DNA of 64,000 nt from Cyanobacteriota bacterium (GTDB taxonomy: Bacteria > Cyanobacteriota > Cyanobacteriia > Thermostichales > Thermostichaceae). A program made the translations under genes and the position numbers. This document shows, one piece after another, positions 14,278-20,634 of the stretch; position 1 is the first letter of the stretch; the number at the start of each line of letters is the position of its first letter. The stretch lies in the NCBI GenBank assembly GCA_033764955.1, contig JANRIL010000045.1, positions 1 to 64,000 on the forward strand, given 5' to 3'. The notes under the pieces are model-generated. The model was not told the origin of the DNA, did no database searches, and was given only the letters and a program-made list of their open reading frames with translations.

Positions 14278-14514
14278 ATGAAAACTGCAATTTCCCTTCC
14301 AGATTCAGTTTTTGATGAGGCGGAAGCACTAGCTCAGCAGTTGGGCTTGTCGCGCAGTGAGCTTTATACGAAAGCCTTGCAAGCGTATTTGAAAAAGCAC
14401 AATCGCAATCAAATCTTGCACAAGCTGAACCAAGTTTACTCTCAAGAGGCTTCCGGACTGGATCCTACGATGGCAAAGATGCAATTTATGTCTCTCCCTC
14501 GTGGGGATTGGTAA
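14278..14514 (+). CDS. CopG/RHH-type antitoxin of a MazF/PemK TA pair (in cassette)
   Basis: MKTAISLPDSVFDEAEALAQQLGLSRSELYTKAL; stop overlaps the toxin start. Confidence 0.85.
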   Translation: MKTAISLPDSVFDEAEALAQQLGLSRSELYTKALQAYLKKHNRNQILHKLNQVYSQEASGLDPTMAKMQFMSLPRGDW

Positions 14515-14859: not shown

Positions 14860-14944
14860 TGCTAACAAGTCGCTACCGGAACGTGGCAAGCTGGTCGATT
14901 GAGTATTCAAAGTTATCTGCGTCCGGTGAGTTTGGTCGTTAATC
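14860..14944 (+). repeat. attC site of the solitary MazEF cassette (cassette 14151-14938)
   Basis: R'' TGCTAAC is complementary to the cassette start G/TTAGC at 14150; inner ACCGGA..TCCGGT pairing; R' G/TTAATC at 14938. Confidence 0.85.
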
Positions 14945-15166
14945 TTCTTGGTTCTCCATTGATTGCGAATGCCTGACAAATCCTCTAAGGCGTAGGCATT
15001 TGCCCCGTGAAGTGCAGCCAGTTTCTTGCTTATACGGTGGCTGCAGTCGCGCATGAACCGCTTCTCTCTGCCTGACGTAGTTCCCTATACCCTTTAGCTT
15101 TGCTGACAAGGGCTGGTTGTCCATTCTTTTCCTGAAGAGAGCCTTGAATTGAGGGATCCCGAACCC

Positions 15167-15435
<269 letters not shown>

Positions 15436-15437
<2 letters not shown>

Positions 15438-15890
15438 ATGGGGTTTCTCAATGCCGTTTCGTGATGACCCATTCGTCAAGGGCTGACAACGTCTCGCGTC
15501 CCAACTAAAAAAGCTTACATACTAGCTCAGCGGTTAGAGCACTTTCCTCAAGAGAAAGGTGTCGTAGGTTCAAATCCTACATATGACCAACAGCTTTTTT
15601 GACTTGCGTGAGGCTCATTTTTCTGGGTAAAGGGCTGCGCCCTAACTTCCAGAGCCTACATACTCTCCCAAACAAGGTGCGCCTATGGAGGTAGGTGCTG
15701 CAAGCCTGAACCTAAATAGCAGGCGTAGATAGGGGGATCCCCCTCTAACTCTACATGGCTCTGGTTACTAGCGCGGCTCTGCATACCCGTCATGATCCTC
15801 ACTCATCTCAAGCCAATTCCAACAACGGCATCCGATGTCAGAGAAAGATCGTTGGATCCATCCTTCGATAGCGGGTAGCGATCCAACCAT
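15436..15890 (+). ncRNA. Putative large structured ncRNA with an embedded tRNA-like domain (candidate Y-RNA analogue)
   Basis: No ORF of 60 aa or more in ~470 nt; long-range pairing TTTCTC/ATGCCGTT (15444-58) with AACGGCAT/GAGAAA (15824-46); D, anticodon and T arms at 15523-15580; several further hairpins. Confidence 0.7.
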
Positions 15891-15907
15891 GATGAGGAGG
15901 TGAAAAC

Positions 15908-17104
15908 ATGTTCGATACTTATGATCAAGAAGCTCCCACCCAAACGGTGGTCAGCAGCAAAACCCTTTTAAGTTTGGGCTGGCAGCCCCTCTATCGCCAA
16001 CTGGACTGGCTTTATTTGCAGCGCTTGATCACCCAAGATCCGGGGGAGTTTTGGCGGCACACGCTGGATGTGTGCGGAGAAGTTGCCAGCACCCTGGGGC
16101 GAACTGAATATACCTGGTGGGCAAACTGGCTGGGGGTGATCTCCGGCTATACCCGTCAGGAAGTGGAGAAGTTTTGGGACTATATCACTCCTGCTCCTAC
16201 GGAACCCAACTGGCGGCAACCCACCCTCACCACCCTTACCCCCGTTACTTATCCGGTGAGCCGTCAAGGGATCCCCATTCACGCTCTCTTGCATCGTTTG
16301 CAGGAGCTAACCGTGTTGAAGGTTTTAGAGTGGCTGGGGCCTCCTGACCGGATTACTCAACTGTTTCAGGGGCGATATTACTATCTGCCGCTGGATCGCT
16401 TTCGTCAATGGCATCAGTTGCAGGCGGATGGCACCATTTGGGGCTATTGGCAGGCTGCTGACATCTGGTTACAAATTACCCCCTATGGATCCCGACAGCG
16501 CAGCTACACCCTGATCGGGTCGGATCTCGATCCCTGGATCCGCAAAGCTACCCATAATTTAGCGGTGATGGTGAGTGGTTATCAAAGCCGGATTGGGCAG
16601 GTGCAGAGTTTGCACCCCCTCCGCAGTTTCCCCGCCGAGATTCAGGCTTTTTCGGATGTTGTGCAGGAGCGAGTCTGGCAACAGTCGCAGCTAGCGATTT
16701 TGGTGCATGGGGATCCCGGAACGGGCAAAACCGCCTGGACTCAAGCCATCGCCAAAGAGATCTTGGTGCCACTGGGGTATGTGATCTTTATTTTGGATCA
16801 TGATGCCGTTGAGAATTTTGTTCCTCCCAGCTATCTCAGCCGGATCGGTCTAATTATCAATGAAGCCGATAATTTGGCACAAAACCGCGCTCAAACGGCG
16901 GGATTTAACCACACCAAAACGGAACATGTTTTGAGCCTTTTGGATGGCACCCTTCATCAAAGTGTGTTGGATGAATCCCAGGATCAGCAAGCCCCTCGTT
17001 TGGTGGTGTTGCTAACCTGCAATACCCTGGAGCGGATGGATCCCGCCGTTTTGCGAAAAGGCCGGATTGATTGTCTCTATGAGTTTCGGCATCGGTTTGT
17101 TTAG
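15908..17104 (+). CDS. AAA+ ATPase with uncharacterised N-terminal domain
   Basis: Walker A GDPGTGKT, variant Walker B LIINEAD, second region of homology TCNTLERMDPAVLRKGRID; RBS GAGGAGG. Confidence 0.9.
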   Translation: MFDTYDQEAPTQTVVSSKTLLSLGWQPLYRQLDWLYLQRLITQDPGEFWRHTLDVCGEVASTLGRTEYTWWANWLGVISGYTRQEVEKFWDYITPAPTEPNWRQPTLTTLTPVTYPVSRQGIPIHALLHRLQELTVLKVLEWLGPPDRITQLFQGRYYYLPLDRFRQWHQLQADGTIWGYWQAADIWLQITPYGSRQRSYTLIGSDLDPWIRKATHNLAVMVSGYQSRIGQVQSLHPLRSFPAEIQAFSDVVQERVWQQSQLAILVHGDPGTGKTAWTQAIAKEILVPLGYVIFILDHDAVENFVPPSYLSRIGLIINEADNLAQNRAQTAGFNHTKTEHVLSLLDGTLHQSVLDESQDQQAPRLVVLLTCNTLERMDPAVLRKGRIDCLYEFRHRFV

Positions 17105-17218: not shown

Positions 17219-18682
<1,464 letters not shown>

Positions 18683-18734
18683 GGGGCTGGCTTTCCTGCC
18701 AGTTTCGCCGAGGATGACTCAATCAATCTGCCTA

Positions 18735-18765
18735 GGGATCCCCACCGAGCGGGGATCCCTTTTAT
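18735..18765 (+). terminator. Probable intrinsic terminator after the vWA gene
   Basis: AGGGATCCCC..GGGGATCCCT hairpin followed by TTTT. Confidence 0.55.
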
Positions 18766-18789
18766 TCAATTTACTCACATTTGCTCAAC

Positions 18790-19051: not shown

Positions 19052-19870
19052 GTGCAGCATAAGGTCTCGAACAATGGGAAAAATGTTTACTACAGCAAAA
19101 TTGCTGATATTTATGATCAAACTCGCTGGCTGACAGAACAAGTCGCTGAGGAAGTTGCAGATTTTATTCTTACTCTAGTCAAGGCAACTCCTGAAACCAC
19201 TTTTTTGGAACCTGGTATAGGAACTGGGTTAAACGTTCTTCCTTTAGTAAGACGTGGCTATTGTGTGACTGGCATTGATGTTTCTCAGGAAATGCTTAAC
19301 CAGTTTTGTCAAAAGCTGCCTGAAATTCCCCCGAATCTGAAACTGATTCATGGTGATGCCTCACAACTACCTTTTGCAGACACCAGCTTTGACGTTGTGC
19401 TAACTGTTCATATGCTTCATACTGTTTCCAACTTAGGAACATTTTTAGATGAAATCGATCGTGTCCTAAAACCAAAAGGTTTCTATCTTAATGCTCAATG
19501 GATTACCCCACCCTCACGACTAGAATTTGAGCAGTATTTCAAAACTATCTTATCTAAGTATCAAGAGCCACAACCTTCACAACAGCCAGGTAAAGTAATT
19601 AACGAAATTAATGTAGAGAAGTACTTACGTAATAAGGGGTATCAGTGTAATTATTTGATAGCTAAGGAATGGACGGTCAGCAACCAGGTTCAGGAATTAC
19701 TCAGTTTCTACAGGTCACGGGCATACGGGTTGTGTTGGCTCGTTCCAGATGAAGCGTTTCATCTGGCAATGGAAGAGTTGGAAGTATTTTGTCATGACTA
19801 TTATGGTTCATTGGAGGTGGAGTTATCATCCCAGGCACGATTTGAAATATGGGCATACACCGCAAGCTAA
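19052..19870 (+). CDS. Class I SAM-dependent methyltransferase (cassette)
   Basis: FLEPGIGTG, TGIDVSQEML, GDASQLPFADTSFDVV, RVLKPKG. Confidence 0.9.
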   Translation: MQHKVSNNGKNVYYSKIADIYDQTRWLTEQVAEEVADFILTLVKATPETTFLEPGIGTGLNVLPLVRRGYCVTGIDVSQEMLNQFCQKLPEIPPNLKLIHGDASQLPFADTSFDVVLTVHMLHTVSNLGTFLDEIDRVLKPKGFYLNAQWITPPSRLEFEQYFKTILSKYQEPQPSQQPGKVINEINVEKYLRNKGYQCNYLIAKEWTVSNQVQELLSFYRSRAYGLCWLVPDEAFHLAMEELEVFCHDYYGSLEVELSSQARFEIWAYTAS

Positions 19871-19950
19871 CACTTCACGGCAGCGGACGGTCGAAAGTCG
19901 CTTATACTGTGTTCGAGGTTATCTACCGCCGCTACGTTATGCCGTTAGGC
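19865..19950 (+). repeat. attC site
   Basis: R'' AGCTAAC matches the cassette start GTTAGCT; GCAGCGGACGG..CCGCCGCTAC pairing; R' GTTAGGC at 19944. Confidence 0.85.
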
Positions 19951-19956
19951 AGAAAT

Positions 19957-20634
19957 ATGAAAATCACTGAAGTTCGCCAACAGAGCTGGCACACCCTAAT
20001 TTGTAATTACTACGTTTGCTCCTCATGTAGTGTTGTGGATCGTGATTCATCGCGCATGACAATTGGCACTCCTTGCAAGAAGTGCAGTGCACCAAGCCCT
20101 TCTGCTCGCTTATATTTCGGAGTAGAACTTTGCCAGCTTGTGAATTCTATTCAGGATCTATATTTTATTCGTAGCGGAAAAATCACGCACGAGGATGAGG
20201 ACTTCGGAACACAGAAGTATGACATGGAATCCGATATGCGCCCGATATCTGCCATATTATTCTGCACTATTTTTGATGTCCTGATGACAGGGCTAATCAA
20301 AAATATAATGCTTCGAAAAAGCATCCCACAGGAAATTCAAGATTTGTTACTCAAGAACTACCAGTTTGCGATGAAAAAACGCGATCAGCTTTATCCAAAA
20401 CTTCTGAAGGAATCATTCCTCGAATCGATAAAAACAATTAAGGTGGAGACGACACACGATTTCGAGCCTCATTTCGATTATGCGGATAAACTAGCTAAAA
20501 AAAGAAATAAATTTGTTCACAAAGGTGTAAAATGGGTCTTCACGGAAGACGAACTTGACAACATTCCGCATGAATTGCACCCACTGTTTAGCGGTTTTGT
20601 TGCCCTACATAATTATCAAAATGATAAAATCTAA
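19957..20634 (+). CDS. Cassette protein: Zn-ribbon plus HEPN-like domain
   Basis: CSSC..CKKC at the N-terminus; RNKFVH (RxxxxH) near the C-terminus; AT-rich. Confidence 0.6.
   Translation: MKITEVRQQSWHTLICNYYVCSSCSVVDRDSSRMTIGTPCKKCSAPSPSARLYFGVELCQLVNSIQDLYFIRSGKITHEDEDFGTQKYDMESDMRPISAILFCTIFDVLMTGLIKNIMLRKSIPQEIQDLLLKNYQFAMKKRDQLYPKLLKESFLESIKTIKVETTHDFEPHFDYADKLAKKRNKFVHKGVKWVFTEDELDNIPHELHPLFSGFVALHNYQNDKI

Follow-up and report, generated by a model that had tools for sequence, protein, structure and literature searches.

Two tandem Y-RNA-like modules upstream of a divergent Ro60-like gene in a cyanobacterium

An intergenic spacer of 470 nucleotides (nt; 15438-15907, + strand) in contig JANRIL010000045.1 of the cyanobacterial assembly GCA_033764955.1 separates a small open reading frame (ORF) of 66 amino acids (aa) from a gene for an AAA ATPase, with a gene for a protein carrying a von Willebrand factor A (vWA) domain further downstream. 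Positions refer to the window, the whole 64,000-nt stretch of this contig that was analysed. What does this spacer encode, and how may its product be related to the vWA protein? An initial annotation had drawn it as one multi-domain noncoding RNA (ncRNA) of ~400 nt, of a class it did not recognise, and had proposed its bulged terminal helix as a Ro-like binding site. We find that the locus is real as structured RNA but had been mis-drawn: it contains two Y-RNA-like modules, M1 and M2. We think it likely, with appreciable room for other readings, that the spacer encodes two tandem Y-RNA-like ncRNAs within a stress operon, and that the handle on each would dock the downstream protein, a predicted relative of Ro60.

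Two modules in one spacer

Positions 15436-15890 are strongly structured, with a minimum free energy (MFE) of -154.5 kcal/mol (z -5.0), and none of 100 shuffled sequences folds as low. The MFE fold closes two separate domains. The proposal of a large unrecognised ncRNA stands insofar as this is an uncatalogued structured RNA locus, but there are two modules of ~120-150 nt and not one RNA. The bulged terminal helix is likewise a likely Ro-type handle, but there are two such helices, one per module.

Module M1 (15491..15614, + strand) folds on its own at z -3.35. Its outer helix P1 pairs 15491-99 with 15606-14 and its inner helix P2 pairs 15506-15 with 15592-601; the internal loop between them reads CCCAAC on its 5' strand and ACUU on its 3' strand, and a cloverleaf sits atop P2. 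Module M2 (15631..15780, + strand) folds alone at z -3.96 and repeats this frame, with P1 at 15631-40/15771-80, P2 at 15649-56/15757-64 and a CCUAAC.. / ..ACUA loop. Its head consists of hairpin 1 (15679-98), an invariant UGCAAGCC, hairpin 2 (15704-24) and a variable hairpin 3 (15725-54), whose tip is a copy of the palindrome GGGATCCC and tells little about the RNA. We found nothing that the M2 head might mimic, either in Rfam at expectation values (E) up to 10 or by matching against the organism's own genome.

Some of the smaller hairpins drawn earlier survive in this picture. Three of them (GCGCCTAT..GTAGGTGC, GCCTG..CAGGC and GTAGA..TCTAC) are present in the MFE fold of M2, and the first two are also supported by an alignment of 16 sequences. 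The AGGCTC..GAGCCT and AGGGC..GCCCT hairpins are probably wrong because they compete with the covariation-supported M2 stems P2 and P1. The hairpins flanking the modules, GAATGGG/CCCATTC on one side and GTTGGATC/GATCCAAC on the other (15851-87, within the ATPase 5' leader at 15781..15907 on the + strand, which also holds the ribosome-binding site, RBS), are present as described, and neither is unusually stable relative to shuffled sequences (z -1.05 and -0.14, respectively).

The cloverleaf of M1 (15516..15588, + strand), which had escaped notice earlier, gave the one Rfam match at gathering thresholds in the whole window: tRNA (RF00005) at 15518-15586, with 44.9 bits against a threshold of 29. 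A full-length match to an existing family, which would have spoken against a new RNA class, was not found, as it is the inner 69 nt of M1 alone that match tRNA; a permissive search of 15100-16000 (E up to 10) returned noise besides this tRNA. ARAGORN calls the same element tRNA-Leu(CAA) at 15515-15588 (74 nt). The head has the D, anticodon (CAA) and T arms in canonical order, a 5-nt variable loop and a weak acceptor stem, and it matches the linear tRNA model at positions 1-71.

A frame shared across relatives

Is this frame particular to the window? Among 41 related genomes searched by DNA for relatives of the spacer, homologous stretches extending beyond the tRNA core were present in G002, G003 and G039. 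By eye, G002 has five tandem units of the same frame 5' of its ATPase gene, and G039 has two between its homologues of the small ORF and of the vWA gene (70% identity). We then draw on 98 loci of the Ro-like gene, mostly from Nostocales. Modules lie directly 5' of this gene, as judged by eye, in 14 of 16 loci sampled across the class, the other two being L046 and the truncated L049; in the window the gene is 1.5 kb 3' of the modules. All 175 tRNA-like calls in the 98 upstream regions have the same orientation as the Ro-like gene.

The frame itself is borne out by covariation. For M1-type modules, sequences were chosen by an ARAGORN call together with an unpaired UACAYAY motif, without reference to P1 or P2: from 174 calls with room for flanks, 26 had no motif and 145 were at most 80 nt long, and a 90% identity filter left 41. 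In this alignment 95.2% of cells are paired, compared with 34-45% when the partners are slid by 1-3 columns, and 22 of 38 pairs change on both sides, compared with 6-9 when slid; none of 500 shuffles reaches this. Covarying pairs make up 8 of 10 in P1, 4 of 9 in P2 and 5 of 5 in the anticodon stem, while five pairs of the acceptor stem are kept family-wide. Around 152 unique tRNA-like calls, nested two-helix closures average 17.6 base pairs (bp), against 11.6 bp with the flanks shuffled. G-U pairs are common (for example, 27 GC and 14 GU at columns 15/138), as expected of an RNA on this strand and not on the other; these pairs and the uniform strand of the tRNA-like calls argue for RNA rather than DNA repeats.

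For M2-type modules, 20 matches to UGCAAGCC yielded 16 sequences after removal of one coding match, one at a contig end and two duplicates. Here 88.2% of cells are paired, against 33-46% when slid, and 24 of 47 pairs covary. Pairing is nearly complete in P1 (96.8%), the R-A:U-U step (96.9%), P2 (91.7%), hairpin 1 (99%) and hairpin 2 (100%), and falls to 68% in variable hairpin 3. Pairing of 15664-69 with the loop of hairpin 1 could form a pseudoknot, with 67% of cells paired and, by eye, a shifted register in several sequences. In both alignments the handle runs in the same order, with P1, a bulged CCY, an R-A:U-U step, a conserved ACUU and P2, and the loop residues CC, A and ACU are invariant.

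How widely does the frame occur, and what does it carry? A frame finder made 340 calls (312 unique) in the 98 upstream regions, at an estimated chance rate of ~1 per 3 kb; we therefore applied a stricter census that also demanded the anchor UACA and a perfect P2 no shorter than 5 bp. It returned 226 unique modules: 133 tRNA-like, 58 with a short hairpin, 13 of M2 type, 7 long ones with a 23S-like head, and a group with a T arm, a closed stem-loop and a D arm, with 3 further 23S-like long modules among those classed as other. Arrays contain 1 to 7 modules with interchangeable heads and at times unrelated genes between them. By eye, the short hairpin modules are typically found immediately 5' of the Ro-like gene.

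Genome-wide scans were uninformative as counts: the loose frame finder gives ~100 chance calls, which makes its total meaningless, and a pattern search gave 11 matches against 13 in a reversed control. One site did look real, a second short framed module in this genome (G000) on the minus strand of contig C2 at ~73400-73530 (L131:1400-1530). It is followed by a hairpin and a T-arm-like element, which in many Nostoc loci is likewise found 5' of the small ORF; the module adjoins genes for tRNA-Gln and tRNA-Glu.

Two further kinds of head bear on what the modules may present. Long modules of ~182-188 nt share the frame (L013:975-1160 in G002, L004:1127-1308, L057:998-1185, L042 and others), and their heads start with a 23S-like stretch. 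In the L013 module, 29 nt are 100% identical to Escherichia coli 23S rRNA, a stretch that we take to be the helix 69 region. We made the comparison with E. coli because the organism's own genome gave no match to the 23S-like modules beyond chance ones of 13-19 nt, which rules out a host comparison; a search with Rfam rRNA models gave no match at E up to 1. The long module resembles a mimic of rRNA presented by a Y-RNA-type handle. Other heads in the same frame have their arms in the order of YrlA, that is, T arm, closed stem-loop and D arm (L057:1216-1327, L052:969-1128, L071, L072, L076 and L080); this order is seen in related loci alone and not in M1, and the best Rfam YrlA match to a related Nostoc module is weak (20.9 bits, against a gathering threshold of 69). 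Some tRNA-like and YrlA-like heads also contain an extra T-loop hairpin of 20-40 nt (L042, reverse complement, ~1019-1161; L060:2137-2288; L062:2480-2631; L052:969-1128).

Viral contigs provide an independent check on the frame. Six of them (L139-L144), three of which are 340-470 kb long, encode relatives of the Ro-like protein at 36-48% identity. On one 340-kb contig (L142:2438-2985), a framed tRNA-like module, an ORF resembling the small ubiquitin-like (Ubl-like) one, a short module and the Ro-like gene (41% identity) follow one another. Both RNAs fold as P1, loop, P2 and head, at z -2.8 and -5.7; their stem sequences are unlike the cyanobacterial ones, and the ACUU is the same.

Is M1, then, simply a tRNA gene? 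According to cmscan, four of seven acceptor positions are paired, with two model columns skipped on each side, which is short of the seven pairs of an acceptor stem. At 74 nt, M1 is shorter than the five other Leu tRNA calls of this genome (79-83 nt) and does not have the long variable arm that class II tRNAs need, and a genuine 83-nt tRNA-Leu(CAA) is encoded elsewhere (C4:81196-81278). Across the 41 non-redundant modules, the 5' acceptor strand UACAUAC is invariant over 21 different anticodons, so that the anticodon is not conserved among homologous copies. CUA is the commonest, at 44 of 175 calls and 7 of the 41, and UCA occurs 3 times, although many loci are close relatives and these counts are not independent. 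A CUA anticodon would read the amber stop. Given its weak acceptor, the absence of a long variable arm and a fixed acceptor with varied anticodons, we conclude that M1 is tRNA-like and not a working tRNA-Leu. The tRNA-Leu(CAA) call at 15515-15588 should not be counted among the decoding tRNAs.

The alternative that fares best among those we weighed starts from the same cloverleaf. It holds jointly that the tRNA-like modules are genuine tRNA genes like those of the L-arrays that have spread horizontally among cyanobacteria, that the P1/P2 frame is a leader-trailer duplex guiding RNase P and RNase Z, and that the released RNAs are aminoacylated and serve translation under stress, perhaps together with EF-Tu and L7/L12 paralogues encoded at some loci. 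The canonical arm order, the full anticodon arm and the above-threshold Rfam score fit this account, as do genes linked to the Ro-like loci: L7/L12 paralogues in 34 of 97, a CCA-adding-type head domain in 4 and EF-Tu paralogues in 3. Excerpts of PMC8421152 describe L-arrays as stress-induced, with neighbourhoods rich in translation and RNA-processing genes. Dense ordinary tRNA arrays, with a gene every 77-110 nt, indeed adjoin the Ro-like locus on its 5' side in L089 (67-980) and L110 (420-1090), and also in L010 (G039), and they tie the locus to L-arrays. However, an acceptor that stays the same across 21 anticodons misfits anticodon-matched charging, M1 reads CAA with a partly paired acceptor and a 5-nt variable loop, and the same frame also encloses M2, a 23S-like piece, short hairpins and permuted heads of YrlA order. 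We therefore regard true tRNAs as unlikely here, and favour Y-RNA-like modules whose heads borrow the tRNA shape.

A Ro60-like protein and a candidate stress operon

The gene at 17252..18682 (+ strand) encodes a protein of 476 aa. Pfam gives a weak VWA_2 match and nothing else, and a sequence search of solved structures found nothing. An AlphaFold model built with 24 sequences (predicted local distance difference test, pLDDT, 79.5) predicts a TROVE-like ring of helical repeats followed by a C-terminal vWA domain with an intact metal-ion-dependent adhesion site (MIDAS) motif. The top 12 Foldseek matches to this model are all Ro60, Rsr or TROVE structures, including a phage Ro60 (E 4e-12 to 1e-9), and the likeness to Ro60, Rsr and phage Ro60 extends over the full length. 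On this predicted fold, the 476-aa protein is a divergent, previously unrecognised relative of Ro60. The protein is ~70% identical across many cyanobacteria, where it is annotated as hypothetical or VWA. It is encoded in 18 of 201 genomes sampled across the class (E 1e-50 or better) and at no fewer than 549 places in a species-level genome collection, 80 of which were fetched. PADLOC has no model for this protein or for the small one, and gives generic AAA matches for the ATPase.

Which genes accompany it? By tblastn over 97 Ro-like loci, the small ORF (15237..15437, + strand; 66 aa) is present in 83. It ends in RPEAVYG-stop, and its start and its C-terminal Gly, directly before the stop, are invariant in 8 diverse homologues. 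An AlphaFold2 model (pLDDT 90.5) has the order bb-a-bb, which makes it a beta-grasp (ubiquitin-like) candidate; its fold matches are weak, none below E 0.4 in Foldseek, and are mostly to ubiquitin-like, PB1 and sulfur-carrier (TtuB) proteins, and no Pfam or NCBIfam family was matched. A ThiF-type E1-like gene occurs in 39 of the 97 loci. The predicted fold of the small protein and this neighbour suggest a ubiquitin-like pair. Proteins without a family are also frequent: one of 241 aa is embedded in the arrays at 69 loci (for example, L037:~315-1040 and L061:1182-1904) and absent from this genome, one of ~313 aa occurs at 53, and one of 511 aa at 6. Genes for DUF6847 (6), DUF4291 (5) and endonuclease V (4) are rarer. 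In this genome the E1-like and ~313-aa genes are on other contigs.

The ATPase (15908..17104, + strand; 398 aa) is a less constant neighbour. Its AAA domain spans residues 264-393 (Pfam AAA, 6.2e-11), and no family was assigned to the N-terminal part. It is linked to the Ro-like gene at 2 of 97 loci, those of the window and of G002, while 17 of 18 related ATPase loci have neither the Ro-like gene nor the small ORF within 1.5 kb. We conclude that it represents an insertion, specific to this lineage, separating the modules from the Ro-like gene, and is otherwise a stand-alone cyanobacterial gene. A general link between such RNAs and the ATPase was considered and rejected, as 2 of 19 ATPase loci had a tRNA-like call within 1.5 kb.

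Are these genes and modules expressed together? Upstream of the small ORF, a promoter-like site (TTGACA-18 nt-TAGTAT, 15167-15196, + strand) matches 10 of 12 promoter positions. Three 9-nt tandem repeats with a period of 11 and a core of GTAG[G/T][A/T]T overlap it on the same strand (15177-85, 15188-96 and 15199-207), and the -10 box TAGTAT falls inside the middle one. The window has a single tandem GTAGKWT pair where 0.00 would be expected; upstream of the small ORF, L041 and L038 likewise have GTAGTAT pairs and L013 has one copy. In excerpts of PMC10272220, the TrcR operator of the Anabaena trn operon is TGTAGTAT over a -10 box TAGTAT, and in excerpts of PMC8421152, tandem 9-nt repeats spaced by 2-3 nt over the -10 box and transcription start site make a gene inducible by translation inhibitors. 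The arrangement here, tandem TGTAGTAT-like sites over the -10 box, marks 15167-15207 as a candidate TrcR-type operator, which would place the operon under induction by translational stress.

We found no terminator-like site on the + strand of 14900-16000, and neither a terminator-like nor an additional promoter-like site between the small ORF and the ATPase ORF. The Ro-like gene is followed by a terminator-like hairpin of 10 bp (7 G-C) with a T-run (18734..18770, + strand), a probable operon end. Based on the promoter-like site, this uninterrupted interior and the hairpin, we propose a single unit comprising promoter, Ubl-like ORF, M1, M2, ATPase, Ro-like gene and terminator. Both arms of the terminator-like stem are copies of GGGATCCC, a highly iterated palindrome of this genome with 71 copies in the window against 2.3 expected (for example, at 15153, 15734, 18735 and 18752).

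A few features around this unit may be mentioned here. Upstream, a 78-aa ORF (14278-14514, + strand) has weak ribbon-helix-helix (RHH) matches (RHH_3 at 0.0018; VapB). Because the repressor TrcR has been described as RHH-type, this ORF may encode a regulator resembling TrcR, or else an antitoxin. The operon is followed by an S-adenosylmethionine (SAM) methyltransferase gene (19052-19870, + strand; Methyltransf_11, 2.7e-24) and a 261-aa ORF (19849-20634, + strand) with a weak RiboL-PSP-HEPN match (6e-4, below the cut-off). At six other loci (L035, L037, L043, L050, L117 and L130), a conserved leader follows the last module and takes up the ~80 nt that precede the Ro-like start codon. Its C-rich stretch (..CUGCCUCCU..) could pair with a GGAGG RBS, and translational control of the Ro-like gene is possible there. 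The window, with its ATPase gene in between, does not have this leader.

The position of the modules inside an operon also lends some weight to a second alternative, namely that the structured region is a cis-acting leader controlling the ATPase and Ro-like genes, for example by attenuation or protein autoregulation. It lies between two ORFs with no internal terminator-like or additional promoter-like site, and in most other loci the last module abuts the Ro-like gene and its conserved leader. A leader would not be expected to come as 1-7 modules with swappable heads and occasional unrelated genes between them; modules also occur away from the operon, as on contig C2, and tRNA-shaped and rRNA-identical heads would go unexplained. 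We give this account little credence as the main function of the region, although a cis-acting role and a role as separate RNAs are not mutually exclusive.

A proposed Ro60-type particle and its relation to known systems

Two other accounts fall further behind. According to the first, each module is one copy of a small element, mobile or repetitive (tRNA-derived, or like a miniature inverted-repeat transposable element), whose terminal inverted repeats mimic a stem, with no function as RNA. The frame does recur, several times within a locus and again at another place in the genome, which is rich in an iterated palindrome. However, the single strand of all 175 tRNA-like calls, the compensatory changes with strand-specific G-U pairs, and a linkage kept from cyanobacteria to a phage contig (41% protein identity) despite different stem sequences make this very unlikely. 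The weakest account is the one RNA of ~400 nt closed by a helix between 15444-58 and 15824-46 and possibly pseudoknotted with the GAATGGG hairpin: ATGCCGTT at 15451-58 is indeed the exact complement of 15824-31, the 6-bp TTTCTC/GAGAAA pairing is there as well, and the region folds far below its shuffles, but this low energy stems from the two modules, which are individually closed with covariation and separated by spacers that are not conserved in related loci, so that of all the readings it is the one we credit least. A helix of at least 8 bp, with G-U allowed, forms between 15438-15492 and 15778-15907 in 75% of 300 shuffles, and, of 300 dinucleotide shuffles of the whole region, 8% contain a perfect one of at least 8 bp with a span above 300 nt. 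The long-range helix is absent from both the MFE and the centroid folds of 15436-15890 (RNAfold), so that it is a chance-level match without energetic or comparative support, and the pseudoknot has no statistical, energetic or comparative support.

This leaves the two tandem Y-RNA-like modules, and most likely a Ro60-type particle in which the Ro-like ring binds a constant handle, leaving a variable head to imitate tRNA or some other RNA. M1 and M2 would be transcribed, probably together with the upstream 66-aa ORF and the downstream ATPase and Ro60-like genes, and processed into separate RNAs, and the TrcR-type repeats would put this operon in the cyanobacterial translational-stress regulon. 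Each module consists of a handle, the same in every module, and an exchangeable head. By analogy with the bulged stem of Y RNA on Ro60, the handle is the proposed docking site for the Ro60-like protein. The heads, a tRNA-shaped cloverleaf whose anticodon varies between relatives in M1 and a three-hairpin, possibly pseudoknotted fold in M2, may recruit partners directed at tRNA or the ribosome to the Ro-like ring, or may act as mimics or decoys of translation RNAs.

A more specific version of the latter is tentative, and we consider it rather improbable as a whole. In it, the Ro-like ring of cyanobacteria and giant phages displays, through one universal RNA handle, changeable look-alikes of the translation apparatus as baits or decoys: tRNA shapes with free-running anticodons, YrlA-type mimics and a 23S-identical stretch. 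The heads would sense or absorb RNA-targeting toxins or phage factors, translational stress would switch the system on, and its output would pass via the linked ubiquitin-like protein and E1-like enzyme. Rsr and Y RNA are known as a tether for RNA degradation. If the decoy version were true, this would be a surveillance system based on RNA decoys, unlike that tether.

Several observations weigh against the Ro60-type particle as we propose it. The protein does not match Pfam TROVE PF05731, nor does anything in the genome, while the positive controls Deinococcus and Bacteroides were found, and the name Ro60-like rests on a predicted structure at 13-17% sequence identity. The handle does not contain the published Ro-binding motifs; GCGUCCCAAC in M1 and GCGCCCUAAC in M2 resemble them, with a C-rich bulge and then R-A, without matching. 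The gathering scores of Rfam RF00019 (Y_RNA) and RF02553 (YrlA) were not reached, and 15100-16000 had no match to either at E up to 10. In the window, the ATPase gene separates the RNAs from the Ro-like gene. A tRNA precursor undergoing processing would likewise show the canonical tRNA order inside a leader-trailer helix. The loci are mostly from Nostocales and their sequences are related, so that the shuffle statistics overstate independence, and the operator reading depends on a short motif from papers on another species.

What would the locus mean? The biology of bacterial Ro60 and Y RNA has so far been based on few species and on genes in which a TROVE domain can be recognised. The present locus suggests that there is a second Ro60-like family, missed by sequence models, at 549 or more places and on giant-phage contigs. 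Its RNA partners are modular, with one conserved handle carrying tRNA-like, YrlA-like, rRNA-identical and other heads in arrays. If the predicted binding is true, the definition of Y RNA would widen, natural head swaps would become available for testing how Y RNA heads choose their partners, and Ro-type particles would be tied to the TrcR translational-stress response and to a ubiquitin-like/E1 pair.

How does the system compare with those already described? We found no description of the Ro-like family or its RNAs in the literature searched, which omitted two relevant reviews, and no mention there of a Ro60 link to ubiquitin-like or E1 genes; a term search of the text of PMC8421152 and PMC10272220 returned no vWA/Ro-like gene and none of these modules. 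With the trn operon, rtcB and other translation-stress genes, which are TrcR-controlled in the excerpted parts of these two papers, the locus shares the operator-like promoter repeats, and in some genomes it neighbours true tRNA arrays. The M1 core scores as tRNA (RF00005). Unlike a tRNA or an L-array member, M1 sits within a conserved helix that also surrounds non-tRNA heads, its acceptor sequence is fixed whatever the anticodon, and its anticodon and variable arm do not match each other.

The closer likeness is to YrlA and Y RNA, as described in excerpts of Chen et al. (2014, PMC4201824). Like them, the modules are encoded beside a Ro60-type gene (here by predicted fold), often in several copies, and the two ends of each RNA pair to form a long stem that has a conserved bulge and is here backed by covariation. 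At its other end, YrlA mimics tRNA with conserved D and T arms, in the order T arm, closed acceptor-like stem-loop and D arm, the Ro stem replacing the anticodon arm; heads of this order occur in the related arrays. In contrast to YrlA, M1 is arranged like an ordinary tRNA, anticodon arm included, and its acceptor stem is open and stacks on P2; the heads of related arrays include non-tRNA folds and a 23S rRNA piece. The handle motif, CCY..RA / ACUU, also differs from the published GGUCCGA of vertebrates and GNCGAAN0-1G of YrlA. Compared with Ro60, Rsr and TROVE structures (PDB 1yvp, 2nvo, 9nep and 9l5y), the Ro-like protein is 13-17% identical, ~55 residues shorter and missed by PF05731, and its gene is linked to the ubiquitin-like ORF and, in 39 of 97 loci, to the E1-like gene. 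In the same excerpts, canonical cyanobacterial Ro60 proteins are 533-534 aa long and their YrlA rows begin with GGYCGA-type motifs. Because the family described here has 476 aa and a CCY..RA/ACUU handle instead, we conclude that it is a lineage separate from canonical cyanobacterial Ro60.

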